Assembly: GCA_022572465.1 (NCBI GenBank) | Contig: JACZVV010000001.1 | Span: forward strand, 2,749 to 66,748 | Origin: Chloroflexota bacterium | GTDB taxonomy: Bacteria > Chloroflexota > Dehalococcoidia > SHYB01 | DNA length: 64,000 nucleotides | Reading direction: 5' to 3' | In this document: piece by piece, positions 21,403 to 39,390 of the stretch | Layout: each line of letters starts with the position of its first letter | Numbering within the stretch: position 1 is the first letter of the stretch | The notes under the pieces: generated by a model | Databases searched by the model: none | The model's input: the letters and a program-made list of their open reading frames with translations, nothing else | What the model was told of the DNA's origin: nothing | Program-made: the position numbers and the translations under genes

Positions 21403-21430
21403 GAGGCAGGGACGGTCCTGTCCCTGCCTC
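21403..21430. terminator. Bidirectional intrinsic-terminator-like hairpin between convergent genes
   Basis: GAGGCAGGGAC-GGTCCT-GTCCCTGCCTC, a perfect 11-bp GC-rich stem. Confidence 0.5.
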
Positions 21431-21492
21431 CGTTGGGCGGTGACCGGCGCCGGTCGTGGCCCGGACGGTATTTCGGCGTCAGCGGAGGGGGC

Positions 21493-21777: not shown

Positions 21778-21946
21778 GCTACGCTCCTTGTGCGTAAGAT
21801 TGTCCCTCGGAGTAGCAAGCGTCGCGTGCACCGGCCGGAGCATTGGGGTGGGAGGCGGAGACGTAACAGTCGCAATCACTTGGACGGCGATATTATACCA
21901 CGCCGGGCGTTTGTCAAGGGAATGCACCCTGCGTGACTGCCCCGAA

Positions 21947-21991
21947 TGGTGGGCGGTACTGGAATCGAACCAGTGACCCCTTGCGTGTGAA
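21947..21991 (-). repeat. 45-bp copy of the 3' part of tRNA-Val(CAC), from the anticodon loop to CCA; attL-type direct repeat
   Basis: Identical to 38125..38169. Upstream sequence diverges from the tRNA 5' half. Confidence 0.8.
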
Positions 21992-22455
21992 ACTCAGGCC
22001 AACGGGTTCGCCGGCCTCCACCACCATACGCCAACGGAAGAGACATGCGTCTCGACAGTCCACGTCTATCCGCACCCATTCGGTGCGATTCGGCCCCGTT
22101 GCTACATTATTTGCTACAGTCGCTCCCTGTAGGATGCTTCAGAGCCATGGTGGCGCTGCGGCGCTCGGGGTCGAGGTTGCCCCCAACGACGTAAGTCTTA
22201 CAGCCGCAGTCCCCACAGAGAACGGCCGCTCCCAAGCACTCCCAGGTAGCCAACCGCCACTCCTGATACGCTCCCGCCACGCTCCGACGTGTGTTAGCAG
22301 CTCCCAACCAGTCCGTTAGCAAATCGGTTAGCGAAACTGCCCCCGGCCCAAGGCATCCCCGCCTGCGTAAAGCAGCAGAGCGTCAGCCTGAACGGGCTGG
22401 GCGTGGCGGCTGAAGTGAACGTGTGGGCGAGGCGACGGCTGGATGCGTAGACCCT

Positions 22456-22779
22456 CTACGGTGCCCCAGGTAGGCTCTCGCTGGCTATCCCGTCGCCGTT
22501 TCGGTCCAGCCTAGGGGGATCGTTCGCCAGCCCTCCGGCAGCCAGATAGAAGTCCCGGGCCTGCTGCCACATAGGAAAGTCCCCACAGTTCCGGTCGGTT
22601 CCAGCCGCGTCAAAGAGCAGGCCAGGGTTAGCTGCCGGTCGTTGGGTGGACGGCGCGGGCTCGGTAGAGGTTACAGGCTCGAAGGCTGGTTGCTCCACGC
22701 TTCCCTCGATGACGACCTGGGCTGAGCAAGTCCCCAGCATATCGGTGAGGGCGCTCCATTGATCTGCCGTCGCGGTCAA
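22456..22779 (-). pseudogene. Excalibur (extracellular Ca-binding) domain fragment, C-terminal part of a split DUF1524-Excalibur nuclease gene
   Basis: NCGDFPMWQQARDFYLAAGG...LDRNGDGIASE matches the Excalibur consensus. Begins inside the 21-bp direct repeat. Confidence 0.5.
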
Positions 22780-22792
22780 GCTCCAGGTTGCC
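22766..22792. repeat. Direct repeat GCCGTCGCGGTCAAGCTCCAG(G/T)TTGCC, copy A
   Basis: 21/21 identity, then 5/6, with 36090..36116. Confidence 0.55.
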
Positions 22793-22890
22793 GGTACGCC
22801 CCATGGGTCTTAGTATGAGCACGTCAACATGAGCACGTCGATGCTCAAGCGATCGGATCGCCGCGCCGCGGCCAGCCAAGGAGGTTCCGC

Positions 22891-24087
22891 ATGACCACCG
22901 AGACCGAGATCAAGCTGAAGATCGTCGACGCCGACGGCCACTATCTCGAGCCGGCCTTCGAGCTGCCCGACTACATGGAGCCGAAGTACCGGGACGCCGC
23001 GCCCCGCATCGTCAAACGGGATGACGGCTTCGAGTATTGGGAGGGGCGCGACTGGACTGAGGAAACCGGCATCTTCGGCGGCGCCCAGACGCGGCGGGCG
23101 CTTGCCATCGCCGGGCTGGCCGGCGTCGAGCGTTGGAACGTGGTCAAAGACGACCCGGACAAAGCCCTGAACTACACTCAGATGAACCCGGCCAGCTTGG
23201 ACCCCATCGCGCGGCTCAAGGTCCTGGACGAGGAGCGCATGGACGCCGCTGTCCTGTACCCCACCTTCAACCTCAATTTCCGCACCGACGCCGAATTCCA
23301 GATGGCGCTCAACCGGGCGCTGAACGATTGGCTGGCCGATCGCTATATAAGCGCCGACCCCCGCCGGTTGTATGGCGTCACGAACATCGTCACGCTGCAC
23401 GACGTGGACGCCGCTTGCCGCGAGGTCGATCGTTGCGCTAAGCAGCATGGATTCAAGGCCACCTATCTCCGTCCCGGTCTTCCCACCGCCGAGGCCCGCT
23501 GGTGGAAGCGCGACTTCGATCGTTTCTGGGCCACCTGCCAGGACCTCGATGTCGCGGTCGCGTTCCACCCCTTCTCAGTCGACAGGATGTACGGGGCCAA
23601 CCGCGACCTCGACCTGCTCGGTCCGGCGGCCGAGCAGCAGTTCCTGCGCGCCGTGCTCACCCATCCCGTCGATGCGCTGAACGCTGTCTGTGGAATTATC
23701 GTTGGCGGTGTGCTCGAACGGTTCCCTGGCCTGCGATTCGCGATTCTCGAGTCCGGAGGCGGCTGGCTCGTGCCTATGCTCGAGCGCCTTGACCACCGGT
23801 TCGAACACATGGGCTGGAGACTCAAAGACCTGAGCATGAAACCCAGCGACTACTTCCGGCGGCAAGGCTGGATATCGTTCGATCCGGACGAGGCGACCCT
23901 TGGGGTTACAGCCGCGTGGCTGGGCGCTGATCGCATCATCTGGGGCTCCGACTTTCCGCACCCGGACGCCTTCTACCCCAACTTCGTGGATACTCTGAAC
24001 GGCCAGATCGCCGCGCTCCCGCAGGAGGACCAGGACCGCATCCGCGGCCTTAACGCCGTGGACTTCTACAAGTTGCCCAATAACTAG
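22891..24087 (+). CDS. Amidohydrolase-2 family hydrolase
   Basis: 398 aa; VDADGHY, WGSDFPHPD. About 55-60% identical by eye to 20176..21390. Confidence 0.85.
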   Translation: MTTETEIKLKIVDADGHYLEPAFELPDYMEPKYRDAAPRIVKRDDGFEYWEGRDWTEETGIFGGAQTRRALAIAGLAGVERWNVVKDDPDKALNYTQMNPASLDPIARLKVLDEERMDAAVLYPTFNLNFRTDAEFQMALNRALNDWLADRYISADPRRLYGVTNIVTLHDVDAACREVDRCAKQHGFKATYLRPGLPTAEARWWKRDFDRFWATCQDLDVAVAFHPFSVDRMYGANRDLDLLGPAAEQQFLRAVLTHPVDALNAVCGIIVGGVLERFPGLRFAILESGGGWLVPMLERLDHRFEHMGWRLKDLSMKPSDYFRRQGWISFDPDEATLGVTAAWLGADRIIWGSDFPHPDAFYPNFVDTLNGQIAALPQEDQDRIRGLNAVDFYKLPNN

Positions 24088-24279
24088 AACTCGGCCGGCG
24101 CCAGGCGCCGATCGCCGCACGCCGCAGGCCGCACGCCGCACGATTGAGGATGCCGGAACAAACACGGCGCAGGCCCAGCGGCTGCGACGGGTTCTCCGTG
24201 GCCCGTTTCTCCAGGCCCTGGCCGAAGTAGACGTCATCGCACGAGAAATGGGTAGCTCCTCTTCGGCGGAGATGGCGCA

Positions 24280-25404
24280 ATGAAGTTCTCCACATTCCAT
24301 TCGTTCATGCTGGTCGATGCCATAAGGGGGGGCAAGCTGCCGGATGACGTCGACGCCGGCATCCTTCCACAGCATTATGATCAAGTCGTCTCCACCCACC
24401 ATAATGAGATTCAGATGGAACTCGAGGAGATACGTTGGGTGGAGGAGCTGGGGTTCGACGGCGTGTGGCTGCGGGAGCATCACTTTACAGACTACGGCTT
24501 CCTACCGAATACGATGGTCATGCTCGGCTACATCGCGTCCATGACGAAGAGGATTCGGTTAGGCAGCGCCGTCGTTACGTTGCCGCTCCACAACCCGGTG
24601 CGCGCTGCCGAAGACGCCGCACTCGTCGACGTTATCAGTAACGGTAGACTCAATTACGGGATCGGTCGAGGATATCAGTCGATCGAATTCGATACCCTCG
24701 GCGTTCCCATGGACGACTCGAGGGAGCGTTGTTCAGAAGAAATAGAATCCATCATCCAGCTTTGGTCTAACGACACCGCGAGCTATCACGGCCGGTTCGT
24801 GGATTTCGAGCAGGTACGGCTTCAGCCGAAGCCCCTGCAACAGCCGCACCCCCCGGTCTTCTACGCCTCGATCAGCAAAGAGAGCGTCCTGCACTTTGCC
24901 AAGCTTGGCATACCATTCATTGTGGACTCGACGCTGACGCTCTCGAGCCTGGACCAACTGTGCGCCGCATGGAGCGAAGTCGCCAGTGCGCACGGCCACG
25001 ATCCGGGCTCTGGTGAGTTGGTGGCGATGCGCACCGTCTGGCTGGACGAGACAGATGAGCGGGCCAGAGAGTACGTGGGGAGGGCGCCGAAGGTGGAGTC
25101 CACGGCGCACGACCCGAAGTTGGCTCCACGGAAAAAGGATGGGAGCATAGCCCGAGGCTACGAATACTGGCAGAGGGGATGGCATGGGCGTTCGCTCAAA
25201 CACTACGACACCTCGGAGAATTGGGAGAATCGCTGGATCGCGGGCGATATCGATCGTGTGGTCGGTGGCATCGAGAGACTCGAAGAGATGGGGGTAAAAA
25301 ACCTAATTGTCGGGTTCGGATCGGACCCCGAACCGACCTCCCGAGCCGAGAAGCGCCGCCGCATGGAGTTATTCGCGAGAGAGGTTATGCCTCACTTTCG
25401 GTGA
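24280..25404 (+). CDS. Luciferase-like monooxygenase family (flavin/F420-dependent) oxidoreductase
   Basis: 374 aa LLM TIM-barrel signatures (GFDGVWLREHHF, GRLNYGIGRGY). Confidence 0.8.
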   Translation: MKFSTFHSFMLVDAIRGGKLPDDVDAGILPQHYDQVVSTHHNEIQMELEEIRWVEELGFDGVWLREHHFTDYGFLPNTMVMLGYIASMTKRIRLGSAVVTLPLHNPVRAAEDAALVDVISNGRLNYGIGRGYQSIEFDTLGVPMDDSRERCSEEIESIIQLWSNDTASYHGRFVDFEQVRLQPKPLQQPHPPVFYASISKESVLHFAKLGIPFIVDSTLTLSSLDQLCAAWSEVASAHGHDPGSGELVAMRTVWLDETDERAREYVGRAPKVESTAHDPKLAPRKKDGSIARGYEYWQRGWHGRSLKHYDTSENWENRWIAGDIDRVVGGIERLEEMGVKNLIVGFGSDPEPTSRAEKRRRMELFAREVMPHFR

Positions 25405-25603
25405 TGGCAGCAACCACCCGGATAGCACCTTCCCGAACTCTCAGGCCGGCATCGCCAAGATTTTCAGTGACCCCGCCGGAGGCAGGACAGAAGGTTACGC
25501 GAGACAACGCCGCCAACCTGTATGGCTTCCGAGAGGCGCTGAAGACCTGATATCCCCGACACCTGGGCCGTCCGCAGCGAGGGTTCTCCCCAGGCGCTCG
25601 GCT

Positions 25604-26353
25604 TCACTCCCAGGCGCTCACGTCTACACCCATGGCCCGGTATCGCTCCACCATAGCCTGGCCGCCCCCCGGGTCGGGGCCGCGGTCGTAGTCCCAGTGG
25701 CGGATCCTGGCGATTTCGACCCCCATCGGCGGGGCCTCTCCGAGCTTGATCGGCACGATGACGCCCCGTTTGTCCGGAAACGCCCGTTCCCACTCCGCCA
25801 CATGCTCCGCGGAGATGAAGAAGTTGATGCTGTCGCAGGTGACGTTCCACTCCTCCCGAAAGCGGTTCGGATGGATGCCGATGTGGAGGACCGTCGTCGG
25901 CGGGTCGAGCGCCACGACGATGAGGTCCTTGGTCTCAAACCGGATGGGCTCCCAGCAGTCCGGGCAGAACGAATCGATAATCGCCGTGCGGCCCGGGAAC
26001 ATGCCCCCGACGGCGCAGCACTCGCCGCCGCACCCCACGTACCACTTGCTCTCGCCGTCCACGGTCAGCCGGTGCCGGGTCGGCACGTTGCTAAACGGCG
26101 GCATTTTGCTGATCGTCTCCGTCCCAGGGACGAACATCACCTGGACACCCCGCTCTAGCTGGTGCAGGGAGTGCCAGGTGGTCCGCTGGTCCAGGCCAAG
26201 GTCCCGCATGATCTGGGCCAGGTTCGGCCCGCGACCGTGCTCAATGAAAGAGTCCTCCAGATAACGCCTGACCCGCTTCGCATTCTCGGTGAGCTCGAAC
26301 CATTCGCTGGCTGTGTTGCCGTAGACGCCGTAGGGGGCATGGAAGGCATGCAT
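25604..26353 (-). CDS. Alkylmercury-lyase (MerB) family protein, divergent
   Basis: Segments align by eye to MerB: YVGCGGECCA against YAWCALD (Cys96 region, with Glu where MerB has Asp99), NVTCDSINFFISAEH-EW against QSFCCHVHFFASV-EDW (Cys159 region). Confidence 0.5.
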   Translation of the reverse strand: MHAFHAPYGVYGNTASEWFELTENAKRVRRYLEDSFIEHGRGPNLAQIMRDLGLDQRTTWHSLHQLERGVQVMFVPGTETISKMPPFSNVPTRHRLTVDGESKWYVGCGGECCAVGGMFPGRTAIIDSFCPDCWEPIRFETKDLIVVALDPPTTVLHIGIHPNRFREEWNVTCDSINFFISAEHVAEWERAFPDKRGVIVPIKLGEAPPMGVEIARIRHWDYDRGPDPGGGQAMVERYRAMGVDVSAWE

Positions 26354-26401
26354 CCAACTCTCCTTTTGGGCGGCGTGCGTCCGAAGGGCGCCCTGAGGCC
26401 G

Positions 26402-26590
26402 TTATCTGCCGAAGGCCGGCTGTTCCCGCCCCGGGTCTCCCGCCGGACGCTCAATCTTGACGACCTCGGCTCCCTGGTCGGCCAGCAGCATCCCCAGCAG
26501 AGGCCCGGCGACGTAGTGGCCGGCGTCGAGCACGCGCTCCCCGCGCAGAGCGCCCGTGGGTGTTGGTGTCGGACGTAGGTTGATGGTCAT
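26402..26590 (-). pseudogene. N-terminal 62-aa remnant of a family-III CoA-transferase (CaiB/BaiF)
   Basis: [31 protein letters not shown] is the canonical N-terminus, followed by a stop. Confidence 0.5.
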
Positions 26591-26874
26591 ACGCGTCCCG
26601 GATCAGGTTGGCTTACCCAGATATCGTGGGGCGGATTCTACGCGGGCTCTATACGCCCGTCAATTGGGATCTGACGCCCAGGCAAGGGTGATCTTGCGAT
26701 GCACGGTCTCCCTATGGCTCCCGAAAACGTCATTGGCATGTCTGCACCTGGAGCACACCCGTCGCCGGCCTCCATCCGGCACCTGGGTATTGAACGTCCT
26801 TGGGGTCATTGGAGGCGATGATGGGCGCCCAAGGGTGAGGTGCGTCCCCGGGGAGTTGTAAGGGAGGACAACCG

Positions 26875-27528
26875 GTGACAGCTGCCTCTGTTCCTCGCCG
26901 AACGCTAACCAGAGTCGCCGACGAGATGGACCTCCCGTTCTGGGAGGGCGCCGTCCAGGGCAAGCTCCTCGTCCAGCGCTGTAAGGATTGCAACCGCTAC
27001 TACTGGCCGGTCAGCATCTGCGTGCAGTGCTCCAACCGGGACCTGGAGTGGGTGGAAGCCACCGGGCGAGGCGCCGTGTACACCTTAACCTTCATCCACC
27101 CGGCCCTTTCTGCTGGCCTGCGCTGTGAACACCCTTATAATGTGACCGTCGTCGAGCTGGAAGCGGGGCCGCTGATGTTTATCAACATCGTCGACTGCCC
27201 CAGCGACCAGATCGAGGTCGGCATGCCGGTGGAGGTGACGTTCAAAGAGATGGAGGCCGGTGGGAGCGTTCCCGAGTTCCGGCCCGTGCAGTCACAGCCG
27301 CGCCTGACGACGCAAGCGTCTGCGAGTCAAGGAGGGATTCATGGCACAGGAGTATCGGATCATCTCGGCGGATTCTCACGTGAACCCGCGGCCCACGTTC
27401 TGGCGGGACTACCTGCCGGGGAAGTTGGCCGAGCGGGCGCCCCAGGTGGAAGAGACCGACGAGCAGGACTTTATCTTGTTCGAGGGGAACCGCACCCCCT
27501 ACATCATGCTGTCGTCGTTGGCGGGTAA
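26875..27528 (+). CDS. Zn-ribbon / OB-fold protein (DUF35, thiolase-partner type)
   Basis: CKDCNRYYWPVSICVQC zinc ribbon. Paralog of 31069..31488. Conserved region ends about 27290; the ORF has no stop until 27528 and overlaps the next gene, so the true 3' end is uncertain. Confidence 0.65.
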   Translation: MTAASVPRRTLTRVADEMDLPFWEGAVQGKLLVQRCKDCNRYYWPVSICVQCSNRDLEWVEATGRGAVYTLTFIHPALSAGLRCEHPYNVTVVELEAGPLMFINIVDCPSDQIEVGMPVEVTFKEMEAGGSVPEFRPVQSQPRLTTQASASQGGIHGTGVSDHLGGFSREPAAHVLAGLPAGEVGRAGAPGGRDRRAGLYLVRGEPHPLHHAVVVGG

Positions 27529-28426
27529 GAAAGCGGAGGACTTCAAGTTCACCGGCAAGATGAGCGACGCGCGGCCCGGCGGCTGGGACCCCCATGAGCG
27601 CACCAAAGACCAGGACATAGACGGGATCGACGCCGAAGTTCTCTACGGTGGCGGGCCGCTGCGGACGGAGAACAGGGAGCTGGCGGTGGCCAGCCATCGG
27701 GCCTACAACGAGTGGCTGGCGGACTTCTGCAAGGGTGCGCCGGAGCGCCTCCTCGGCATCGCCTACGTGCCAATGTGGGACCTGGAGGAGGCGCTGGACG
27801 AGGTCCGCCACGCCGCCAAGATCGGCCTCCGGGGTGTCCTGATACCCGCGGCCCCACCGGAAGGCGAGTTCGCGGACCCCAAGTACGAAGTCTTCTGGAA
27901 CACCCTCGAAGAGCTCAACATGCCGGCGAACCTGCACGTGGGCTTTAGCGGCGGCCGTACCCCCCGGTTCGACAACTCGACGCATTTCCTCTCGGACATG
28001 CTGATGAGCAAGCTGGGTATGGCGGAACCGGTGGCCAACATGATCTTCTCCGGCATCCTGGCGCGCCACCCCAAGCTCAAGGTGGTGGAGGTGGAAGGCG
28101 GCGTGGGCTGGTGCGCCTTCGCCATCCAATACATGGACCACGTCTGGGAAAAGCACCGCTACTGGACCAAGTCCGATCTCACCGAGCCCCCTAGCTTCTA
28201 CTTCCATCGCCAAATTCGGGGAACGTTCGTCGATGACCCCGTCGCCGTCAACGAGCGCCACACCATCGGCGTCGAGAGCATCATGTGGTCTTCGGACTAC
28301 CCTCACAGCGAGACCCCGTGGCCCAACTCGAGGCAGAGCATCGCGAAGCACTTCGCGGGGGTGCCCGAAGACGAGACCTTCAAAATGATCTGCGGCAACG
28401 CCCAGAGGCTCTACAACATCTACTGA
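27341..28426 (+). CDS. Amidohydrolase-2 family hydrolase
   Basis: 361 aa; ISADSHV N-terminus, WSSDYPH motif, AAGGAGG RBS. Confidence 0.85.
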   Translation: MAQEYRIISADSHVNPRPTFWRDYLPGKLAERAPQVEETDEQDFILFEGNRTPYIMLSSLAGKKAEDFKFTGKMSDARPGGWDPHERTKDQDIDGIDAEVLYGGGPLRTENRELAVASHRAYNEWLADFCKGAPERLLGIAYVPMWDLEEALDEVRHAAKIGLRGVLIPAAPPEGEFADPKYEVFWNTLEELNMPANLHVGFSGGRTPRFDNSTHFLSDMLMSKLGMAEPVANMIFSGILARHPKLKVVEVEGGVGWCAFAIQYMDHVWEKHRYWTKSDLTEPPSFYFHRQIRGTFVDDPVAVNERHTIGVESIMWSSDYPHSETPWPNSRQSIAKHFAGVPEDETFKMICGNAQRLYNIY

Positions 28427-28445
28427 CGCGGCCAGCACCAGCAAC

Positions 28446-28478
28446 AAAGAGAGGGGCCCGATGTCGGCCCCTCTCTTT
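28446..28478. terminator. Bidirectional terminator-like hairpin between convergent genes
   Basis: AAAGAGAGGGGCC-cgatgtc-GGCCCCTCTCTTT, a 13-bp perfect stem flanked by T/A runs. Confidence 0.5.
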
Positions 28479-28491
28479 CATTTGACCCGCG

Positions 28492-29721
28492 TTAGACCAC
28501 GCCGCTTTTCCGCATGGCGTCCAGGCGGCTATCCTCGAATCCGAGCAACTGACGGTAGACGTCGTCGTTGTGCTCCCCGAGCTGCGGCGCACGCGGACCA
28601 TGGCGCCACGGCATCGCCGGAGATACCCAAGGCGAGGCGGGATACGTGAACGATTTCCCAACCTCCGAATGCTCGATTTCCGCGAAGTTGCCTCGCCCGA
28701 CAAAGTGCTCGTCGTTCAGGCTGCCCTCGGGCGGCCGCACCGTCGCCCAGATGACGCCTCGGTTTTGGGCGTCGAGCATGAGCTCGTCGGCATTGTGCTG
28801 CGCGATGAACTTGCGCCGCACGTCGTTGATGTGGCCCATCTCCTTGACGCGGGCGGATGGAATCGTGTATCGCTCGTCCGCCAGGTCTTCCGCCATCCCA
28901 TACTCGTCCAGCATGGCCGCCTCCCGCTCCCACTCCCCAGGGAACAGGCCGCCGCTCGTGATCATATTGTAGCCGTCCTTAGAGAGGATATCGCCCTGGT
29001 ACGTTGGCCGGCGGGGGCTCACCATTCGGCCAACCTCGTACACGGACAAGTTGTTCTCCGTGCAGGTGTTGACGGCCGTATGGATCGAAAAGTCGATGTA
29101 CTGGCCGCGGCCGGTCATCCGCTGATGCCAGAGCGCTGCCAGCGCGTCCATCGTCGCCATTGAGCAGGAGATGTGCGACGACTGCCACATCTGGGGCGCG
29201 ATAGGCGGTGTGTCGAATTCGCCGTCCGCATTTGGGCCGTACCCGCAGATCTTCGTCTGTCCACCGAGCGCGAGAAACACCAGGTCGGACCCCTTGTAGT
29301 CTCGCCAGGGACCCGTCTCGCCGAAGTCCGACATCGCCAGCACGATCAGCCGGGGATTGTCTGCCTGCAGGGTCTCGAAACCCAACCCGAGGTCGGCGAG
29401 ATATCCAGGCCGCGACGTAAGCAGCAGCAAATCTGCTTTCTTCAGGAGCTCCCTGAACACGCCGCGGCCCTCGCCGTTCTCCAGGTCCAGCGTGATCCCC
29501 TTCTTTCCGACGTTGTAGTGCCAGAAATGGAGACTCCGCTCGGCGCCGGGCTCGTCCCGGTAGAACGGTCCGATGCGCCTCGTCGGCGAACCTCCCGGGG
29601 GCTCGACCTTGATGACGTTCGCCCCCATCCCGGCGAGCAGCTTGCCGCAGAACTCCCCCCGCCAGTCCGCGAGCTCGATGATGGTGAAGTCGTCCAGAGC
29701 CATCGGATGCACCTCGGCCAT
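28492..29721 (-). CDS. Family-III CoA-transferase (CaiB/BaiF)
   Basis: Start MAEVHPMALDDFTIIELADWRGEFCGKLLAGMGANVIKVEPPGG with AGGAGGG RBS. The upstream 52 aa of the track ORF are shadow. Confidence 0.85.
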   Translation of the reverse strand: MAEVHPMALDDFTIIELADWRGEFCGKLLAGMGANVIKVEPPGGSPTRRIGPFYRDEPGAERSLHFWHYNVGKKGITLDLENGEGRGVFRELLKKADLLLLTSRPGYLADLGLGFETLQADNPRLIVLAMSDFGETGPWRDYKGSDLVFLALGGQTKICGYGPNADGEFDTPPIAPQMWQSSHISCSMATMDALAALWHQRMTGRGQYIDFSIHTAVNTCTENNLSVYEVGRMVSPRRPTYQGDILSKDGYNMITSGGLFPGEWEREAAMLDEYGMAEDLADERYTIPSARVKEMGHINDVRRKFIAQHNADELMLDAQNRGVIWATVRPPEGSLNDEHFVGRGNFAEIEHSEVGKSFTYPASPWVSPAMPWRHGPRAPQLGEHNDDVYRQLLGFEDSRLDAMRKSGVV

Positions 29722-29732
29722 GATTCGCCCTC

Positions 29733-31016: not shown

Positions 31017-31068
31017 ACTCGCCTCCTTTGGCCGACCTCACCGCGCCCTAGCGAAAGTCCGGGCCGAT

Positions 31069-31488
31069 CTAGCCCGTTGCCGGACGGAACTGGGGCAGCG
31101 TGCCGCCCCCGTCGAGGTCGGTGAATGTGACCTCGACGGGCATGCCAAGCTCGATCTCGTCGTTGCCGCATCCGACAACATTAGTGAACATGAGCGGCCC
31201 CTCGTCTAGCTCGACGACGGTGACATTGTAGGGAGTGTCCGCCGCCCAGTTCTGGAGCCAGGGCCGGTGGATCACGGTGAACGTGTAGACCTTGGCCTTG
31301 CCGCAGGCCTCGACCCAAGGCAGGTCCTGCTTGCCACACTGCATGCATATGCTCGCGGGCCAGTAGTAGCGGTCGCAGGTCGCGCAGTGCTGGATCAGCA
31401 GCTTGTGCCGCGCGGCCCCCTCCCAGAACGGGAGGTCGAGCTCGTCGGCGACGAACTGCTTCGGGTCAGGCTTCTGCGTTGTTGTCAT
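31069..31488 (-). CDS. Zn-ribbon / OB-fold protein (DUF35)
   Basis: Start MTTTQKPD; CATCDRYYWPASICMQC. Forms a pair with the downstream thiolase-like gene, as in SCP-x/ChsH2-Ltp2-type systems. Confidence 0.75.
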   Translation of the reverse strand: MTTTQKPDPKQFVADELDLPFWEGAARHKLLIQHCATCDRYYWPASICMQCGKQDLPWVEACGKAKVYTFTVIHRPWLQNWAADTPYNVTVVELDEGPLMFTNVVGCGNDEIELGMPVEVTFTDLDGGGTLPQFRPATG

Positions 31489-31492
31489 TAGC

Positions 31493-32626
31493 CTACTTCC
31501 CCAGCACCACGCAGCCGTGGGCCCAGGTGTTCTGTACGCCGGCGTTGGCACCGTGCCCGGTCACAAGCGCGATCTCGGCGTCCTTGACCTGCGTCTCGCC
31601 GGCCTGGCCCCGCATCTGAAACAGGCCCTCCGAGAGGGCCGTGTACCCCATGACGTACCATCCCGAGAGCTGCCCTCCGCCCGTGTTCGTCGGGATGCGC
31701 CCGTCGAGGCGGGTGTCGCCGCCCATCACGAAGGGCCCGCCCTCGCCCTCGTTGCAGAAGCCGTAGCCCTCCAGCTGCATGATCACGTTGATGGAGAAGG
31801 CATCGTAGCATTGAAAGACGTCCACGTCAGCCGTGGTGATGCCCGCCATGCGGAAGGCCGACTCCTTGGCGGTGGCGCAGTCGAGGCCGTTGTAGAGGCT
31901 CTTGTCGTGCCAGCGCCGGATGTTGTGCCCCACTCCGAGGCCTCGGATGAAGACTGGTTTGGACTTCAGGTTGCGAGCGCGCTCCGCCGTTGTCACGATC
32001 ATCGCCACGCCCCCGTCGGTGTCGCGGGTGCAGTCGAGCCGCCGCAGCGGAGCGCAGATCATCGGCGAGTTGTAGTAGTCCTCGAGCGTGATCGGATTGC
32101 CGTACTCGATGGCGTCGGGACGCTTGCAGGCATGCTCGCGCTGCACGACCGCGACCGTTCCCAACTGGTCCGGCGTCGTGCCGTAAACGCCCATGTGGCG
32201 GCTGGCGTGAAAGGCGTGCGAGGCCACTGGGCTCACCAGGCCCCACGCCTGCGCGATGCCATAGCCGTGCCCGCCGATCTGCGCCCGCGTGCTCCACGGA
32301 CGGTGAGCCCCGACCAGCAGCACCGTCTCGGCGAGGCCCGCTTCCATCGCGCCGCAGGCGGCCATAACCGTCGCGCTTGCCGTCGCACCGCCGGTCTGCA
32401 TGTACCACGAAAACTTGGGCGTCAGCCCCAGGTAGCGTAGGTCCACGACGGACGGGTCCTGGTGCCCGTAGATGTACCCGTCGATGTCCTTCCGTTCGAG
32501 CCCTGCGTCGTCCAGAGCCTCCTTCACGGCCCAGGCCACGACCTGACGCGTCGTGTAGTCGGGCAGCTTGCCCTGCTTGGTGATCCCCAGGCCGACGATG
32601 GCATACTTGCCCGATTCGATGGCCAT
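31493..32626 (-). CDS. Thiolase-like (SCP-x / nonspecific lipid-transfer-protein type) protein
   Basis: Start MAIESGKYAIVGLG with GAGGAGG RBS; thiolase-fold C-terminal GxG motifs. The upstream 159 aa of the track ORF are shadow. Confidence 0.8.
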   Translation of the reverse strand: MAIESGKYAIVGLGITKQGKLPDYTTRQVVAWAVKEALDDAGLERKDIDGYIYGHQDPSVVDLRYLGLTPKFSWYMQTGGATASATVMAACGAMEAGLAETVLLVGAHRPWSTRAQIGGHGYGIAQAWGLVSPVASHAFHASRHMGVYGTTPDQLGTVAVVQREHACKRPDAIEYGNPITLEDYYNSPMICAPLRRLDCTRDTDGGVAMIVTTAERARNLKSKPVFIRGLGVGHNIRRWHDKSLYNGLDCATAKESAFRMAGITTADVDVFQCYDAFSINVIMQLEGYGFCNEGEGGPFVMGGDTRLDGRIPTNTGGGQLSGWYVMGYTALSEGLFQMRGQAGETQVKDAEIALVTGHGANAGVQNTWAHGCVVLGK

Positions 32627-33132
32627 GGTGAAACCTCCTCGCATGTGGGCGTCGCAGGACGTGCCCATTGTAGACTCCCGTCGGCTGTACCGGCAACGGG
32701 CGAGTTGACTTAGGCTGTACTGAGATGGAGATGGAGATGGAGGGGAAGGGGACGGCTCACCGAATACGCCGGCTGGTTGCATCGGTCCGTGCAGCTTGTT
32801 GGGCGATGGGAGTGCGCCGATACCACGAGAATGGTCAACATCGAGAGGACGGCCAAGCTCCTGCGCTTCACCGAACGTTGCTCGGCCCTGGAGGCGGTGG
32901 GGCTGGTGAGCACCATCTACGCCTCGGGCCCGCTTGCGATCGGGCAAAGGCGGCGGTAGGCGGTGACTATGCCCTCGGCAGCTGATCGCAGATCCTCCAG
33001 ATCCACGGGGACGGAGTCGAGTAGTTCCTGGTCCCTTGCCGCCTTTATGTCGTCCAGGAGTGTAGCCGCCGCTTGCCACGCCGGTGGCAATGCCGCCCGC
33101 CACCCACTACAATAGGTCGGGCCAACCCCGTT

Positions 33133-33182
33133 GGAGGGATGGCAGAGTGGACGAATGCGGCGGTCTTGAAAACCGCCGCCCA
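33133..33182 (+). tRNA. 5' fragment (acceptor 5' strand, D-arm, anticodon arm) of a tRNA-Ser(UGA)-like gene; 3' half absent
   Basis: GGAGGGATGGCAGAGTGGACGAATGC-GGCGG-tCTTGAAAa-CCGCC parallels bacterial tRNA-Ser(UGA) through the anticodon stem-loop. Downstream sequence lacks a T-arm and CCA. Confidence 0.5.
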
Positions 33183-33284
33183 GTGTCGGATAGGTAAGAG
33201 CCGGTAGGCATCAGTCTGCCGGCTCTTCTGTTGTGTACGGTTGCGTCTGGTCGCGTTAGCCTGGGTTACGTATCAAAAGACGTA

Positions 33285-33473
33285 TCAATTTTGAACCCGT
33301 TGGCGCGCTCGGTCCGCGCTGGCACCACCTCCGATTGCTTCTTGCACACGTCGGCGGGTCCGGTATCCCGAGAACCAGCGGTACTTCAGCTTCCCGTCAG
33401 ATGGGTCGCGGCCCAGGTAGATCACCACGGCCCAGCTGTTGGACTTGGCTCGGCGGCGGATGTGGCCCTTCAT
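33285..33473 (-). pseudogene. N-terminal AP2/arm-binding domain fragment of a tyrosine integrase
   Basis: MKGHIRRRAKSNSWAVVIYLGRDPSDGKLKYRWFSGYRTRR matches the integrase N-terminal consensus (KGSIRKR..SW...YLGRDP.GKR). Stops after 62 aa. Convergent with the tRNA-Ser fragment. Confidence 0.55.
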
Positions 33474-33580
33474 TGTGGCGATTATAGCAACGACAAAGAC
33501 GAGGGAAGTGAAAAACGGAGGGTCAGAAGCAAAGGAATAGGCAGGCCAGAGTTCCCTAGCCCGCCTATGACCTCTCGGAG

Positions 33581-33814
33581 CTACTTGTTGCCCCGAGGCT
33601 TGTGGCCTTCACGTTCGGCGAAGGCATCTATCTTGCCTTCCTCCCAATCACGAGCTGTTTCGTTCTTGACGCGAGGGCCTTCTATTCGAAGAGTGTCACC
33701 AAGTCCAGCGGCCCGGTTCTCGGCCTCACGGCGTTCGGGGTTGTCGGTGATGCCGAACTTGATGATCTTGTTACCGTCTCGCATCGTGTATCGATAGGTA
33801 TCGCGGTCTGCCAT
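33581..33814 (-). CDS. Small hypothetical protein
   Basis: 77 aa ORF with acceptable codon usage; no recognisable motif. Confidence 0.3.
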   Translation of the reverse strand: MADRDTYRYTMRDGNKIIKFGITDNPERREAENRAAGLGDTLRIEGPRVKNETARDWEEGKIDAFAEREGHKPRGNK

Positions 33815-33903
33815 TTGTTTCTCACCTCCTGACTACCACAGATTTTCAAGGGCCAAGCCCAAGCGACGCGTGGGAAAGCGTCTAAGAAGATCTTCATAGA
33901 ACG

Positions 33904-34440
33904 TTAGGGTGGATCGGGAGCCATTGCCTCTTTCAACAAATCGGAGGTTTTGGCCCACTCAATCACGCCATTGCGTTCGTTGGCCGATGGGGCTTTTTCC
34001 AATACGGTCTGAACCATCAATCTCGCCATATGCTGGCCAAGGTTCCAACCCACCGCCCGCAACCCCTCCTTGGAAATGATCGTGTACATTGGGCCATCGA
34101 AGTGAGTCAGGGCCTCCGGATCAGGGTCGAAGGTACGAGCGAGTACGTCCTTTACCGCGGCATCGTCCATCGCTCGCATGAACAGTTGCGCTCCCGGGTT
34201 GTCCAACGCTTTCGTCAATAGCCGCCGCGCCAACGTGGTGACGCCGACCTCCTGAGCCCTCGCCAATTGCTTCAACTTCTTCAGGTGCTCTTGGTCCAGC
34301 CTGATGCTCAACACCGCCGACAGCGGCCGCTTCACTTCGAACTCTACCTCTTCGGTGTTCTCATCAGCTTCCCCCATTTCGTGCGTGGCAAAATACTCTG
34401 CTGCTTCCTTGTCGCTCATCTTGTCATGCGGTGGTTTCAT
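33904..34440 (-). CDS. Ribbon-helix-helix (BrnA/CopG-like) antitoxin-type protein with C-terminal extension
   Basis: LSIRLDQEHLKKLKQLARAQEVGVTTLARRLLTKAL RHH motif. Immediately downstream of the BrnT-like gene. Confidence 0.45.
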   Translation of the reverse strand: MKPPHDKMSDKEAAEYFATHEMGEADENTEEVEFEVKRPLSAVLSIRLDQEHLKKLKQLARAQEVGVTTLARRLLTKALDNPGAQLFMRAMDDAAVKDVLARTFDPDPEALTHFDGPMYTIISKEGLRAVGWNLGQHMARLMVQTVLEKAPSANERNGVIEWAKTSDLLKEAMAPDPP

Positions 34441-34470
34441 GACATGGTCCTCCTTTTGGTTGTCCCGCCG

Positions 34471-34801
34471 TTAACGCGCTCCTTTCCTGCTTTTGGGCTT
34501 GGCCCGGCGTTGCTCTGTGATCGTGGCATCCATCGCGGTGACGACGCGCCACACACCTTCATCCTCTCTGCCCAGCACTATTTTTAGATGCCGACCGGCA
34601 TCGGTCTTGCCGAATACCAGGTAAAACTTGCCTTCGCGACGGCCGTATGTCCTGTTGGCGACGGCCGTATGTCCTGTTGGCGACGGCCTCTTCGACCTCA
34701 TCGAGGATGACTTGATGACGGGCCAGTATGTGATCCTCAGCCCATTCAGTCCACCTCAGCTCGTCGATTTGGAACACGCCCCGGACTCCTTTCGGCTTCA
34801 C
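34471..34801 (-). pseudogene. BrnT (DUF497) family toxin disrupted by a 22-bp tandem duplication
   Basis: N-part FQIDELRWTEWAEDHIL...EEAVANRTYGRR in one frame; C-part VANRTYGRREGKFYLVFGKTDAGRHLKIVLG in another. The peptide VANRTYGRR is encoded twice. Confidence 0.55.
34639..34682. repeat. Exact 22-bp tandem duplication ACGGCCGTATGTCCTGTTGGCG x2
   Basis: Read directly from the sequence; it frameshifts the BrnT-like ORF. Confidence 0.8.
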
Positions 34802-34907
34802 CGGTTCCTATGTAATACATTGTAATACATTCGCCTCCGGCTGTCAAGCCTTTTGGGGTCCAAATCGGGTGAGTTTCCAGTGACGACACGCCCTCGCCAC
34901 CTACCCA

Positions 34908-35186
34908 TTGCCCGTCCAGGCCCGACCGCCTAGACTCCCGGCCATGCGCCCCGACTACCTGGCCCTACGACCCGACGGGTCCATCGTGGACACCCGTCTG
35001 CGCTTCGGCAGAGACGATCGCGTGCGCATCACCCGGGGACCGCACGCCGGCAGCCTGGCCACCGTTGAGTCACTTCTCGGGTGCTGGATCAAGGACAACT
35101 CGCCACAGAGCGAGCCTGGGTACAACGTGGCCTTGGACGGCGGCGACGTCGTGAGCGTGCGGTGGGACTGGGTTGCTCCGGTGTAG
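34908..35186 (+). CDS. Hypothetical protein (KOW-like motif)
   Basis: 92 aa ORF; DRVRITRGPHAGSLATVES resembles a KOW motif. Confidence 0.3.
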   Translation: MPVQARPPRLPAMRPDYLALRPDGSIVDTRLRFGRDDRVRITRGPHAGSLATVESLLGCWIKDNSPQSEPGYNVALDGGDVVSVRWDWVAPV

Positions 35187-35300
35187 AACGAGCCACTATC
35201 TTCAGTAGCGAAGCCACCCGGCGATGTGCGGACGGTTCACGCTGAAAAATGATCTCAGCGCGTTTGAGTTGCGATTCAACTTTCGAGGCGACGATCTCGA

Positions 35301-35810
35301 CTACCGGCCCCGCTCCTGTCTGTCGATGGCCTCCTGGTACCGCTGCGAAACGTCGGCCTGGGTCTCGCGTTGCTCGGGCGTCCACCACGTTTTGATGAAC
35401 GAGAGCACCGCGCTGACCTCCGCTACCGAAAGCCTGTCCCCGAACGCGGGCATGGCACCCGGGAACTTGCCGTTCAACACCCAATCCGTGAGCTGAGCGT
35501 CAGGGTGATGCCAAGTGTGTCCCGTCTCGTTATGGGGGGGTGCGCCGACCACCCCTCCCTGACCACTCTGAGTCCCGTGACAAACCTGGCAGTTGGCCCC
35601 GTACAGCGGCTCACCCGGGTGTGAGCCTCCGGCTTCCTCCTCCTCTTGAGCGATCTCAGGGGAGGGCGAAGGGGTCGACGCCAAAACGGCGGGTGGCGAT
35701 GGTGCGTCGGCATCCGTCGGTCGGGATTCACCCCCCGAACACGCCGTCACTACTAGCGCTACCGCCAACCCGGCCACAGCGAGAACCACCCTTGATGACC
35801 GTCTTGGCAT
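35301..35810 (-). CDS. c-type cytochrome lipoprotein
   Basis: Signal peptide with lipobox (LVVTAC) and heme-binding CQVCH. Confidence 0.7.
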   Translation of the reverse strand: MPRRSSRVVLAVAGLAVALVVTACSGGESRPTDADAPSPPAVLASTPSPSPEIAQEEEEAGGSHPGEPLYGANCQVCHGTQSGQGGVVGAPPHNETGHTWHHPDAQLTDWVLNGKFPGAMPAFGDRLSVAEVSAVLSFIKTWWTPEQRETQADVSQRYQEAIDRQERGR

Positions 35811-36089
35811 CGCCACCCCCCTGTCTGAACCCGGCTGCATTGTATGGCTGCGGACGGGCCCGTGGTCAAGTGAGGACAGACGGGTGCTAGAATCCGAGGC
35901 GCAGAACCAATTGCTGTAGTCATAGGGGTGGCGTGTGAAAGTCATCTTGGTTGGAATCGAGGCGGCGGTGATACTGACCGGGTGCGAGGCGGAAGAAGCG
36001 CCCAGGGCGCCGTAATGCGGACCGTAGTGTTCTTAGCGACGGCTATGTTGCCGCTGTCAGCTTGTTCTGACGGGGCACCCCATTCATCA

Positions 36090-36116
36090 GCCGTCGCGGT
36101 CAAGCTCCAGTTTGCC
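36090..36116. repeat. Direct repeat GCCGTCGCGGTCAAGCTCCAG(T)TTGCC, copy B
   Basis: Matches 22766..22792. Confidence 0.55.
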
Positions 36117-36127
36117 TTGACCGTGAT

Positions 36128-36328
36128 TCAATTCACGGCGTACTCGCACCAGTAGGATTCTCCTGGAGGACGCCAATCCTCGGGTCCCTTGGCCCCTTTC
36201 GAGCGGTTGGCCGATGCTGTGACGGCGATCAGGTGGCCGTCGAACGAGAGGTCATTGGCGTAGTCTTCCTTCGTCTCGGCGGCCCAGGCCCACCCGCCGG
36301 ACCTATGGGCATTAGCGAGGGGGACCAT
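36128..36328 (-). pseudogene. DUF1524 (GmrSD C-terminal HNH-like nuclease) domain fragment, N-terminal part of a split DUF1524-Excalibur gene
   Basis: [26 protein letters not shown]...YWCEYA matches the DUF1524 His-Me finger consensus. Ends in TGA 7 codons before the 21-bp repeat; read-through of the TGA would give ...LTATADEW, paralleling LTATADQW at the start of 22456..22779. Confidence 0.5.
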
Positions 36329-36448
36329 GCGGTCAACTTGGAGGCTCCTGGTGACTTCAACCTTTGTGTCGGTGTATGGGGCGCGCGCATCTCTCTTGAG
36401 GGTTCCTAGTTTCTATGTACCACCGCGTCTAGCTTGCCCCCGGCACCC

Positions 36449-36459
36449 GGGGGGGGGGG
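36449..36459. repeat. Homopolymeric G11 tract
   Basis: cccgggggggggggtagg read directly from the sequence; intergenic inside the island. Confidence 0.6.
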
Positions 36460-36508
36460 TAGGTTGCCGCCTTCAGCGCCGCCATGTTCCTCGAACGCCA
36501 CGGCCACA

Positions 36509-36892
36509 TCATCCATCCGCCAGGTAATGCGGCGAGTCCGGGACCGGTGGGATCACCTTCCCACCCATTGTCTTCTTCGCCTCGTGAACCAGTCGCAGCC
36601 GCCGCTTGGAAACCCTGCCCGCAAAGCGAAAGAACAGCAGGCCCAACTCATCCAGCGAGTAGTGTACGAAGCCCGCCGGTATGCGCTGCCTTGCTGCGTC
36701 GTCGGTGTAGAAACCCACCAGGTCTTGCAACTCATTGCTCCACAGGAGCGCATACCCGTCTCGCTTCAAGGTGGCCTCGACCTCAGTCATCTCCGCATCG
36801 GTGACCTTCAGGTCATCGGGATACTTCACCGGCCAATCCCGGCGCCGCAGGCGGGCCAGGATCGCAGATTTGTTCGCCCGAAGCTCCTCCAC
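36509..36892 (-). CDS. Hypothetical protein (island-borne)
   Basis: 127+ aa ORF with coding-like composition; the frame stays open upstream of the annotated Met. Confidence 0.35.
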   Translation of the reverse strand: MEELRANKSAILARLRRRDWPVKYPDDLKVTDAEMTEVEATLKRDGYALLWSNELQDLVGFYTDDAARQRIPAGFVHYSLDELGLLFFRFAGRVSKRRLRLVHEAKKTMGGKVIPPVPDSPHYLADG

Positions 36893-37057
36893 TTCCTCTG
36901 GCGTGAGGGCTTCCTTGGGTGCCCATCGCAGGTTGTCGCCGTGGACTTCAAGAACGACGCCGCGACGAACTCCATCTCCAGCAGTGGGAGCACAGGGAGC
37001 CCCACCTGAAACCCGATAGAGTCTTTTGGGGCGTCACCCAAAGAAGGGGGAAAAACG

Positions 37058-38044
37058 ATGACCGGAAAACACAGGGGTAACCAGGAAGGCAGTGTCTACC
37101 AGAGGAAGTCCGATGGGCGATGGGTCGCCGCCAGCGTCGTAGACGGCAAACGCCATGTCCGTTACGGACGCACCCGCCAAGAGGCCGCACAGAAGCTCAG
37201 GGACCTGCATGCACGGCAGGACAAAGGGCTGCCGATGACGACGGCCGGGATATGCCGCTCGGGGACTACCTGGAGCAATGGCTGGCCACCGTCAAGACCC
37301 GGGTCCGGCCTTCCACCTACGAGATGTATGAGGTCATGGTGATGGTCCATCTCACGCCGGCCCTGGGCCACGTCCGCCTGGGCAAGCTGACGCCGGAGGA
37401 TATCGAGAAGGCTTACGCTGCGATGCAAACGGCGGGGAAGTCCGCCAGCGTCATCGAGCATGCCCTCCTCCGCCTCGCGAAGGCCCTGAACGACGCAGTA
37501 CGCCGCCAGCATATCTACCGGAACCCCTGCCATGCCGGGAGCCCGCCCCATCCCTTCCGGCGGGAGTTGGCTCCTATCGAATCCCGGGGCATACAGCGTC
37601 TCCTTGCTGCTGCCCACGAGACTGACTACTACGCCTTGTGCACACCGCCTTACACACGGGCTTCCGACGCAACGAACTCCTGGCCCTCGTACCAGGAACC
37701 CAAGACGGCCAAGGCTCGTTGGCTGGTGGCCCTTACACCATCCTCGGTCGGTGTCCTCAGAGGCTTGTGGACCACCGGAGGCCGAGGGGCCGCAGCTGGG
37801 CTATGAGATTACGGAGGACAGCGCATTTTTCCGCCACCGCGATGGATCGCCCATGCGCATGCTCCGCCAAGGCATCCATCCGAAAATCGTTCAAGAGCGC
37901 CTGGGTCGTTCCCGCGTGGGTGTAACTCTAAGCATCTACAGCCACGTCACGCCGGGATTGCAGGAAGCTGCCGCGTTGCGATTCGAGGAGGCCTTTACGG
38001 TCACCAGCGAGCCGGAGGCCAGCCTGGCTGCGCCAGCGAGATGA
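37058..38044 (+). pseudogene. Tyrosine recombinase / phage integrase with at least three frameshifts
   Basis: Arm-binding N-terminus (GSVYQRKSDGRWVA) in frame a. SAM-like core-binding domain (LGDYLEQWL...) in frame b. LHTGFRRNELLAL box in frame c. C-terminal FRHRDGS...LGRSRVGVTLSIYSHV (catalytic Tyr region) in frame d. Confidence 0.75.
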
Positions 38045-38124
38045 ATTGGTACAAAAAAGGGTACACTGGTGTCAAAACGAAGGCCCTCGGGACCACCCCG
38101 AGGGCCTTATTGCTTCTGTTGAAC

Positions 38125-38200
38125 GTGGTGGGCGGTACTGGAATCGAACCAGTGACCCCTTGCGTGTGAAGCAAGTGCTCTAACCCCTGAGCTAACCGCC
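38125..38200 (-). tRNA. tRNA-Val (anticodon CAC)
   Basis: GGGCGGTTAGCTCAGGGGTTAGAGCACTTGCTTCACACGCAAGGGGTCACTGGTTCGATTCCAGTACCGCCCACCA; cloverleaf with 7-nt anticodon loop UUCACAC. The 3' 45 nt are duplicated at 21947-21991. Confidence 0.85.
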
Positions 38201-38227
38201 CTAGCCCGGCGTGGGGTCTCGACGAAT

Positions 38228-38302
38228 GGTGCCAACGGCAGGGCTCGAACCTGCGACCTAGCGCTTATGAAGCGCCCGCTCTTCCCCTGAGCTACGTTGG
38301 CG
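38228..38302 (-). tRNA. tRNA-Met (anticodon CAU; elongator or Ile2-type, not distinguishable)
   Basis: GCCAACGTAGCTCAGGGGAAGAGCGGGCGCTTCATAAGCGCTAGGTCGCAGGTTCGAGCCCTGCCGTTGGCACCA; G1-C72 pair. Confidence 0.8.
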
Positions 38303-38451
38303 ACCGGCGTGCCGATTGGCCTGCCGCCCCTCGGGCACGCGACGACTATAGTATAGCCTGAAACGCGGCGTCAACGGAACAAACGCCAGCTGTTTTCGGC
38401 CACGGGATGGGACGAGACACCGGTCCAGACGTCGGCGGACGCGTGCCGGCC

Positions 38452-39210: not shown

Positions 39211-39390
39211 TGCCGCACGCCTCCTCGGCGAGATGCGCCGTCAGGCCCGAAGGTCCGGCCGGCGTCAACGGCGATGATAGGCACGGTGAGACGCCTCGTC
39301 AAGGCGGCGGCAGAGGCGAAATCCCAGCCGGCGCCCCCCAACGGGAGCGTCGATCGCAGCGTTTTCGCCCGGAAGGCCTGGCGCTTGCCG

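Follow-up and report, generated by a model that had tools for sequence, protein, structure and literature searches.

A decayed, cargo-retaining genomic island at the tRNA-Val(CAC) gene of an uncultured Chloroflexota bacterium

The tRNA-Val gene and its displaced 3' half

We analysed a 64,000-nucleotide stretch of a metagenome-assembled genome (MAG) of a Chloroflexota bacterium (assembly GCA_022572465.1, contig JACZVV010000001.1), hereafter the window, to whose positions all coordinates refer unless another contig is named. The segment 21992–38125 lies between two copies of the 3' part of a tRNA-Val(CAC) gene, carries a disrupted tyrosine-integrase gene at its tRNA end, and is missing from the same site in two related genomes; we interpret it as a decayed genomic island. 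The features that define its two ends, including the attachment (att) cores, are:

38126–38201, minus strand: intact (regenerated) tRNA-Val(CAC) gene (ARAGORN; Rfam RF00005, 69.8 bits; exact repeat)
38227–38301, minus strand: tRNA-Met(CAT) gene just upstream of tRNA-Val, chromosomal context outside the island (ARAGORN and Rfam)
38126–38170, minus strand: tRNA-side att core (attL), the 3' 45 nt of tRNA-Val (exact repeat)
21947–21991, minus strand: distal att core (attR), displaced tRNA-Val 3' fragment (nt 32–76) at the far island end (exact repeat)
38080–38108, no strand assigned: 12-bp GC-rich hairpin in the part of the island arm that separates the integrase stop from the tRNA 3' end (RNA fold −27.9 kcal/mol, z = −4.0)
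37058–38044, plus strand: tyrosine-integrase pseudogene, convergent with tRNA-Val (tblastn of the homologue P0002 and peptide mapping)
21493–21777, minus strand: RRM-type RNA-binding protein gene, the first chromosomal gene past the island

The 45-nt string TTCACACGCAAGGGGTCACTGGTTCGATTCCAGTACCGCCCACCA occurs exactly twice in the window, at 21947–21991 and 38126–38170, on the minus strand in both cases and 16,179 nt apart, and the two cores are identical at 45 of 45 positions. A third copy was absent even when up to three mismatches were allowed, and none of 100 shuffled sequences gave any match. The repeat corresponds to tRNA-Val nt 32–76, beginning at the anticodon loop's first base and reaching as far as the CCA end, with the anticodon at 34–36 (positions counted by hand). 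A preliminary description of this DNA had reported the exact copy in the same orientation, and this holds; its boundaries have to be moved slightly, from U33 to nt 32 at the start of the repeat and from 38169 to 38170 at the end of the upper copy. It had also described the DNA 5' of the distal copy as unrelated to the tRNA, in agreement with our alignment (A1), and had considered that the distal copy might belong to a second complete tRNA. No tRNA was called at the distal copy by ARAGORN or Rfam, and a Rfam scan of 20–40 kb (E ≤ 0.1) returned no tRNA other than tRNA-Val and tRNA-Met.

[quoted passage not shown] This 'A' class is well established, accounting for 2083 of 3919 Islander islands (PMC4383910), and an attB extending from the anticodon loop to CCA has been described for one integrase group in Klebsiella (10.1101/2020.11.02.365908). 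The tRNA-side core would on this arrangement have been supplied by the island. Promoter-like sites were found upstream of tRNA-Met (38374–38345) and of the RRM gene (21917–21890), the latter 30 nt from the displaced fragment. The hairpin at 38080–38108 is terminator-like on both strands and probably ends transcription of the tRNA operon in occupied genomes.

The integrase at the tRNA end is a pseudogene

The integrase gene adjoins the intact tRNA and is convergent with it (37058–38044 on the plus strand against a minus-strand tRNA), as had been described. Its stop at 38044 lies 81 nt from the tRNA 3' end at 38126, which is the tRNA-proximal position expected of an Islander integrase, occupied here by a pseudogene. 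Five pieces could be mapped:

37058–37249, frame 2: piece 1
37252–37641, frame 1: piece 2
37641–37688, frame 0: piece 3, with the box-I arginine motif HTGFRRNELLAL
37696–37767, frame 1: piece 4
37799–38044, frame 2: piece 5

Aligned to the intact 386-aa P0002, these pieces are collinear and occupy three frames with four frame changes. The gene had previously been described as split over four reading frames; the disruption is confirmed, but the count of frames is not, and two deletions have to be added to it. Approximately 27 residues are missing after box I, and a 32-residue deletion takes ILPRAL…LHDARHAHATL, including the HxxR box (LHDARH). In addition, LGHS has become LGRS, and the box-I arginine is readable only within the 48-nt frame-0 stretch; the tyrosine motif IYSH is kept. 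Stitched together, the translation scores 26.2 bits on PF00589 (cut-off 27.1) over profile positions 137–169 only, compared with 88.6 bits for intact P0002, and no single open reading frame (ORF) encodes the complete catalytic domain of an active tyrosine recombinase.

Descent from the family is evident from a PF14659 match (E = 2e-12), the retained IYSH motif and 48–56% identity to integrases of 381–386 aa across all pieces. Among intact proteins, the stitched translation is closest to Chloroflexota integrases of 381–386 aa, with 47–51% identity (E = 1.9e-97), and the sole closer entry is a 184-aa fragment of the same pseudogene. Contig L002, from another assembly (see below), is ungapped across the whole integrase gene, and the lesions are therefore real rather than sequencing errors. 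Judged by these lesions, the integrase is dead.

Occupied junctions in independent assemblies

Other assemblies of the organism were recovered by exact-protein look-ups, the source metagenome assemblies being ERZ23498856, ERZ23498787, ERZ25039799, ERZ27267519, and ERZ27267525. Contig L002 spans 36658–40788 without gaps at 99.0% identity to the window, L099 spans 34594–38167 and L101 spans 26518–38167 (both at 99.7%), and L005 spans 21430–23056 at 98.3%. Four further assemblies, representing at least three samples, thus reproduce both occupied junctions and 11.6 kb of the interior at 98–99.7% identity, so that the occupied structure is no assembly artefact of the window contig. Taxon labels on proteins that cluster with those of the flanks assign the organism to Chloroflexota. 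The exact look-up of the amidohydrolase A gene (20014–21390), for which the start codon was guessed, recovered no independent contig for the left flank of the window.

Occupied distal junctions were also present in two more divergent strains, L006 and L007 (~92–93% identity). In L006, the displaced fragment (L006:125–169) has a pair of mutually compensating T-stem substitutions relative to the window core (ACTGG/CCAGT to CCTGG/CCAGG), which implies that it comes from a functional tRNA-Val allele of that strain. Such compensation is expected if this strain's native tRNA half survives as the fragment and the half now in use was brought in by the island. Occupied junctions were found on at least two flank backgrounds, L007 carrying the flank variant of the empty sites (…GCGGCAATCAAGCTGGGT) and the window, L005, and L006 carrying another.

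Two SPAdes-type assemblies from different samples break at one and the same 55-nt vertex (38113–38167): chromosome-side contigs end at 38113 and island-side contigs at 38167, leaving a 55-nt overlap (ends of L001, L003, L099, and L101). A 45-bp repeat alone cannot cause a break at k = 55, and some co-occurring variant must therefore diverge there. In graph terms, 38113–38167 looks like a vertex at k = 55 from which a third branch, not recovered here, would leave, and this suggests a co-occurring allele that diverges at 38112 or 38168.

Empty tRNA-Val sites in related genomes

A comparison with related genomes for an empty tRNA-Val site had been proposed in the preliminary description, and such a site was found twice, on two independent contigs. 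L004 (from ERZ23498787) aligns with window positions 38974 to 38121 at 98% and then continues directly from 21991 to 21303. L098 (NCBI MAG GCA_022566575.1, contig JADFIP010000003.1) is colinear with 48579–38121 over 10.5 kb at 97.0% and then jumps to 21991; it contains complete tRNA-Met and tRNA-Val genes according to ARAGORN, followed 171 nt later by the RRM gene. The gene order in both is SDR, tRNA-Met, tRNA-Val, RRM with no insert, and the flanks are 97–98% identical to the window. The distal core is fused in both contigs to the tRNA 5' half, with the promoter and gene of the RRM protein following a complete tRNA-Val. The island is hence present in some genomes of a natural population and absent from others.

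The empty attB junction reads …CCACCACGTTCGCGG…, with the trailer CGTTC-GCGGCAATC after CCA in both empty sites (CCACCA-CGTTC-GCGG). This string occurs at neither window junction, so the empty-site contigs cannot be de Bruijn chimeras across the 45-bp repeat. The attR trailers read CCACCA-TTC-GGGG in the window, L005, and L006, and CCACCA-TCTC-GCGG in L007. As these differ from the CGTTC of the empty sites, we argue that the empty alleles are ancestral and did not arise by recombination between the repeats. Identity between the empty attB and the island arm continues for another five bases (CGTTC), so that the block of identity may at first have measured 50 bp.

We also surveyed 80 loci of relatives that encode the ICL/PEP-mutase protein of the window's flank (74–81% identity, all MAGs); many carry the label Chloroflexota, and the remainder are assigned to Actinomycetota, Dormiibacterota, and some additional phyla, so that they point to a taxonomic position only loosely. 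There was no conserved gene order among them, and none of the 60 loci scanned had a tRNA-Met–tRNA-Val pair nearby.

On the left flank, the similarity of four contigs (L004, L098, L006, and L007) to the window ends at about 21303, just outside the island. Of amidohydrolase A, itself a ~72% nucleotide paralogue of the island gene 22891–24087 (repeat D1), these contigs retain before that position no more than a frameshifted remnant (~78%) of the last ~30 codons; beyond it they carry sequence that is missing from the 64-kb window (L004:1490–2014, L006:811–1348, L098:11726–12180). A 42-nt motif, TTGGGAGCGGCYGTTC…GCTGTAAGAC, has a single window copy at 22194–22235 (minus strand), ~200 nt inside the distal island end; copies with 83% identity are present in the empty-site strains and in the ~92% strains, exactly where the left-flank similarity stops (L004:1493–1534; L098 at about 11726–11770). 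ARAGORN called an 80-nt 'tRNA-Ser(GCT)' over this motif in L098, which did not align to the real tRNA-Ser of the window and was treated as a false positive.

Homologous elements and the likely vehicle

Three intact homologues of the integrase each end 70–85 nt from a convergent tRNA gene, namely tRNA-Val(TAC) in L089 and in L090/L096, and tRNA-Ala(TGC) in L091/L097, and the geometry in the window is the same. Upstream of these three lie an HTH_17 (excisionase-like) gene in every case and a Prim-Pol or AAA_25 gene in two. Across all five homologous-gene contexts examined, HTH_17 was found in five, Prim-Pol and/or AAA_25 in four, and a phage structural gene in none. A further backbone relic lies just upstream of the pseudogene:

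36512–36961, minus strand: relic of an element backbone gene (orf127; ORF 36509–36892, 127 aa, extended by tblastn)

Among 5.8 billion proteins, orf127 has only three homologues, one of which (P0143, 76% identity) is not a copy of this island; P0143 is encoded on contig L100 directly downstream of an HTH_17 gene and a Prim-Pol/PriCT/AAA_25 gene. When the proteins of L089–L091 and L100 were searched against the island by tblastn, only the integrase and orf127 matched and no HTH_17 or Prim-Pol remnants were recovered. Of the domains expected of a self-mobile element (HTH_17, Prim-Pol, AAA_25, relaxase, and type IV secretion system), none was found in the island ORFs. The ancestor was probably a small Prim-Pol-type integrative element whose excision and replication genes have since been deleted.

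The exact 45-mer had no match among IMG/VR viral contigs and was found in four JGI marine metagenome contigs. Two of these (L092 and L094) carry tRNA-Met and tRNA-Val, after which come a homologous arm and 116 nt left over from the integrase 3' end (77% nucleotide identity). In the other two (L093:201–245 and L095:839–883), the 45-mer follows non-tRNA sequence and precedes the same arm and integrase remnant, with a second integrase C-terminal remnant ~580 nt away on the other side of the core; the arrangement represents either a junction resembling attP or one inside a tandem array of degraded islands. The att/integrase lineage therefore recurs at tRNA-Val in other organisms, and it is decaying there too.

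Comparison with known systems

The closest described relatives are the Islander tDNA islands whose attP is anticodon-centred (class 'A'; Williams 2002; Hudson, Lau and Williams 2015, PMC4383910), with which the window shares the regenerated tRNA and direct 3' fragment, the tRNA-proximal tyrosine integrase, a 16-kb size, and accessory metabolic cargo. Unlike those islands, it has a multiply disrupted integrase and no excisionase or replication genes; its host is an uncultured Chloroflexota lineage known from metagenomes only, and both alleles come from environmental assemblies rather than isolates.

The Prim-Pol elements beside Chloroflexota tRNA genes (L089, L090/L096, L091/L097, and L100) have an integrase of the same family (~50% identity), length class, and domains, placed 70–85 nt from the 3' end of a convergent tRNA, and L100 additionally shares orf127. 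They differ from the window copy in their HTH_17 and Prim-Pol genes, in showing none of its ~10 kb of catabolic cargo, and in their targets, tRNA-Val(TAC) and tRNA-Ala(TGC) as opposed to tRNA-Val(CAC). These elements may be comparable to pSAM2.

The marine islands at tRNA-Met–tRNA-Val(CAC) (L092–L095) share an identical 45-nt half, a homologous arm after CCA, and a ~77% identical integrase 3' end. In contrast to the window, they derive from different organisms (GC 54–63%), and L092 and L094 retain the integrase 3' end only.

Origin and fate of the island

Taken together, we consider 21992–38125 to be a decayed, cargo-retaining genomic island that was inserted by a tyrosine integrase at the anticodon loop of tRNA-Val(CAC), with a probability of roughly 90%. 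The regenerated tRNA, the displaced 3' fragment, the integrase at the tRNA end and the empty sites all agree with the tRNA-targeting integrative element proposed in the preliminary description. The attP of the circular element would have held a copy of tRNA nt 32–76 and at least 5 nt of trailer, and the crossover presumably fell in or beside the 7-nt anticodon loop, flanked by the inverted repeat of the anticodon stem. Recombination would have linked the tRNA's chromosomal 5' half with the 3' half of the element, leaving the tRNA functional, and would have displaced the native 3' half by 16.2 kb to 21947–21991, still attached to the RRM promoter region; the island arm would have provided the new tRNA 3' half together with the GC hairpin at 38080–38108. 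After insertion, the mobility backbone probably decayed through breakage of the integrase and of a toxin gene and loss of the excisionase-like and Prim-Pol genes, with stubs of a second integrase and of nuclease genes remaining and the catabolic cargo staying intact and host-like in composition. The island would now be a fixed chromosomal segment, unable to excise by itself. Of the earlier statement that the element is immobilised, the dead integrase stands, and immobility itself, both cores being perfect, is something we infer.

Several observations weigh against this interpretation. With two perfect cores, a related or paralogous integrase elsewhere in the genome, of which the 64-kb window is the part seen, could act in trans. 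The polarity of the event, an insertion and not a loss, is deduced mainly from the trailers. For the intact homologues, a repeat search and blastn-short over the 10 kb upstream in L096, L097, and L089 recovered no distal copy of the adjacent tRNA, so that they provide no independent confirmation that integrases of this family target the anticodon loop. The heavy decay of the integrase sits uneasily with a divergence of only 2–3% between occupied and empty genomes. Finally, the comparison of GC content and codon bias with the flanks, which had been suggested as a check, was only weakly positive: the tetranucleotide distance rises across 22–38 kb with a maximum at 32–38 kb, but GC is only mildly atypical (0.630 in the island, 0.657 in the flanks). 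The catabolic cargo is host-like in its GC at third codon positions (GC3, 0.83–0.90), and only 33.2–37.1 kb deviates (GC 0.60, GC3 0.70–0.77). The cargo may have come from a close relative or been added later.

An alternative is that the island still moves between strains, either through a related integrase acting in trans on the perfect cores or through homologous recombination in the conserved flanks. Presence and absence are indeed polymorphic at only 2–3% divergence despite at least six integrase lesions, the 45/45 identity of the cores would permit movement, occupied junctions stand on at least two flank backgrounds (L007 compared with the window, L005, and L006), and the shared break at the 55-nt vertex in two assemblies suggests co-occurring junction alleles. 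At the same time, no attP-type junction of the island was found; a hypothetical P-core-P' junction would read …GGCCTGAGT + 45-mer + CGTTCAACAG… (…GGCCTGAGT + 45-mer + CGTTCAACAGAAG…). Nor did an intact close integrase turn up (51% identity being the highest for an intact homologue), viral contigs lack the 45-mer, no excisionase-like gene survives, and one old insertion in a sub-lineage explains the polymorphism equally well. We therefore regard continued movement as unlikely. It is similarly doubtful, if conceivable, that an island disabled in cis circulates in the Chloroflexota population, exchanged by flank recombination or by a distantly related integrase acting in trans, with its polymorphism upheld by selection on the intact catabolic cargo.

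The 16-kb segment could instead be ancestral, with the empty sites derived from it in a later event, either precise excision or RecA-type recombination of the 45-bp repeats. Direct-repeat recombination would restore an intact tRNA, and empty and occupied alleles do coexist at high flank identity. However, a crossover inside the core would leave the attR trailer behind, and both empty sites show CGTTC instead. This scenario, which appears quite improbable to us, would alter only the history of the empty allele and not the identity of the island.

Still less probable is an origin as a degraded prophage or integrative conjugative element in place of a small Prim-Pol-type element. Integrases that target tRNA genes are common in prophages, and L100, the contig with the orf127 homologue, also encodes a weak match to an Sf6-type small terminase. 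Nevertheless, no capsid, tail, portal, large-terminase, relaxase, or type IV secretion domain was detected among the ORFs scanned between 21.9 and 38.1 kb, the Pfam matches of the island ORFs include no structural or packaging genes, the 45-mer was not in the IMG/VR viral contigs, and the homologue contexts point to HTH_17 and Prim-Pol/AAA_25 genes with no phage structural gene. An artefact, whether a chimeric contig across the short repeat or a misread second tRNA, can be dismissed: the window does come from a MAG and contigs of other assemblies do break at the repeat, but the junctions and 11.6 kb of interior recur in four other assemblies and neither ARAGORN nor Rfam finds a tRNA at the distal copy.

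Under the preferred interpretation as a decayed island, the locus documents the standard life cycle of a tRNA island, comprising anticodon-loop integration, loss of mobility genes, and retention of cargo, with both occupied and empty alleles taken from environmental data. This is an ordinary and well-known type of island and leaves our knowledge of how islands work unchanged; its use lies in lineage annotation and population genomics. It marks 21992–38125 as accessory DNA for annotating and binning this genome, explains assembly breaks at tRNA-Val, and flags a strain-variable catabolic cluster (CoA-transferases, DUF35/thiolase, amidohydrolases, a luciferase-like monooxygenase, and a MerB-like lyase).

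Catabolic cargo and mobile-element debris

The interval had been described as rich in catabolic genes and mobile-element debris, and the gene content of 22.9–37.1 kb bears this out. Nine intact ORFs between 22.9 and 32.6 kb make up ~10 kb of catabolic cargo:

22891–24087, plus strand: Amidohydro_2 protein
24280–25404, plus strand: luciferase-like monooxygenase
25604–26353, minus strand: MerB-like lyase with an N-terminal winged helix-turn-helix
26875–27528, plus strand: second DUF35 protein (DUF35/ChsH2 OB-fold)
27341–28426, plus strand: Amidohydro_2 protein
28492–29877, minus strand: family-III CoA-transferase (operon-like block 28492–32632)
29733–31016, minus strand: family-III CoA-transferase (same block)
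31069–31551, minus strand: DUF35/ChsH2 OB-fold protein (same block)
31493–32632, minus strand: thiolase-like/SCP-x protein (same block)

No cargo protein scored above any curated (equivalog) NCBIfam cut-off. The two DUF35/ChsH2 genes, 26875–27528 on the plus strand and 31069–31551 on the minus strand, are inverted paralogues with ~73–75% nucleotide identity (inverted repeats I1 and I2), and a thiolase-like partner adjoins only one of them.

Approximately 4 kb of debris follows at 33.2–37.1 kb, with a related nuclease fragment at the opposite end of the island:

33330–33473, minus strand: stub of a second, different tyrosine integrase, first ~47 aa (Arm-DNA-bind_4)
33904–34440, minus strand: CopG/RHH antitoxin-like gene, intact (PF12441, 27.3 bits against a cut-off of 28)
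34471–34801, minus strand: DUF4258-like putative toxin gene in two overlapping ORFs (when repaired, DUF4258 at 22 bits against a cut-off of 25)
35301–35945, minus strand: cytochrome c (Cytochrome_CBB3), intact ORF
36073–36328, minus strand: GmrSD_C/DUF1524-type nuclease fragment with an internal stop
22456–22800, minus strand: DUF1524–Excalibur nuclease C-terminal fragment

The second integrase stub, which is of a different subgroup and abuts the catabolic cluster, suggests an island put together from two or more elements. The putative toxin gene is split by a perfect-register 22-bp tandem duplication, 34633–34654 and 34655–34676 (TTCGCGACGGCCGTATGTCCTG / TTGGCGACGGCCGTATGTCCTG), so that the adjacent pair is not an intact type II toxin–antitoxin system.

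The two nuclease fragments share 44 nt at 89% identity (36073–36116 and 22749–22792) and complement each other, the stitched pair giving one contiguous GmrSD_C + Excalibur match. A single nuclease gene split by a 13.3-kb insertion was considered, but target duplication by a simple insertion is a poor fit to a 44-nt overlap at only 89% identity; the fragments may stem from two gene copies that recombined or from one gene that was rearranged. A short ORF at 35224–35496 (plus strand), starting MCGRFTLKND…, lies opposite the 3' end of the cytochrome c gene and overlaps it; the ORF has no Pfam match, resembles the N-terminus of SOS-response-associated peptidases (SRAP/YedK), and may be a further gene fragment.

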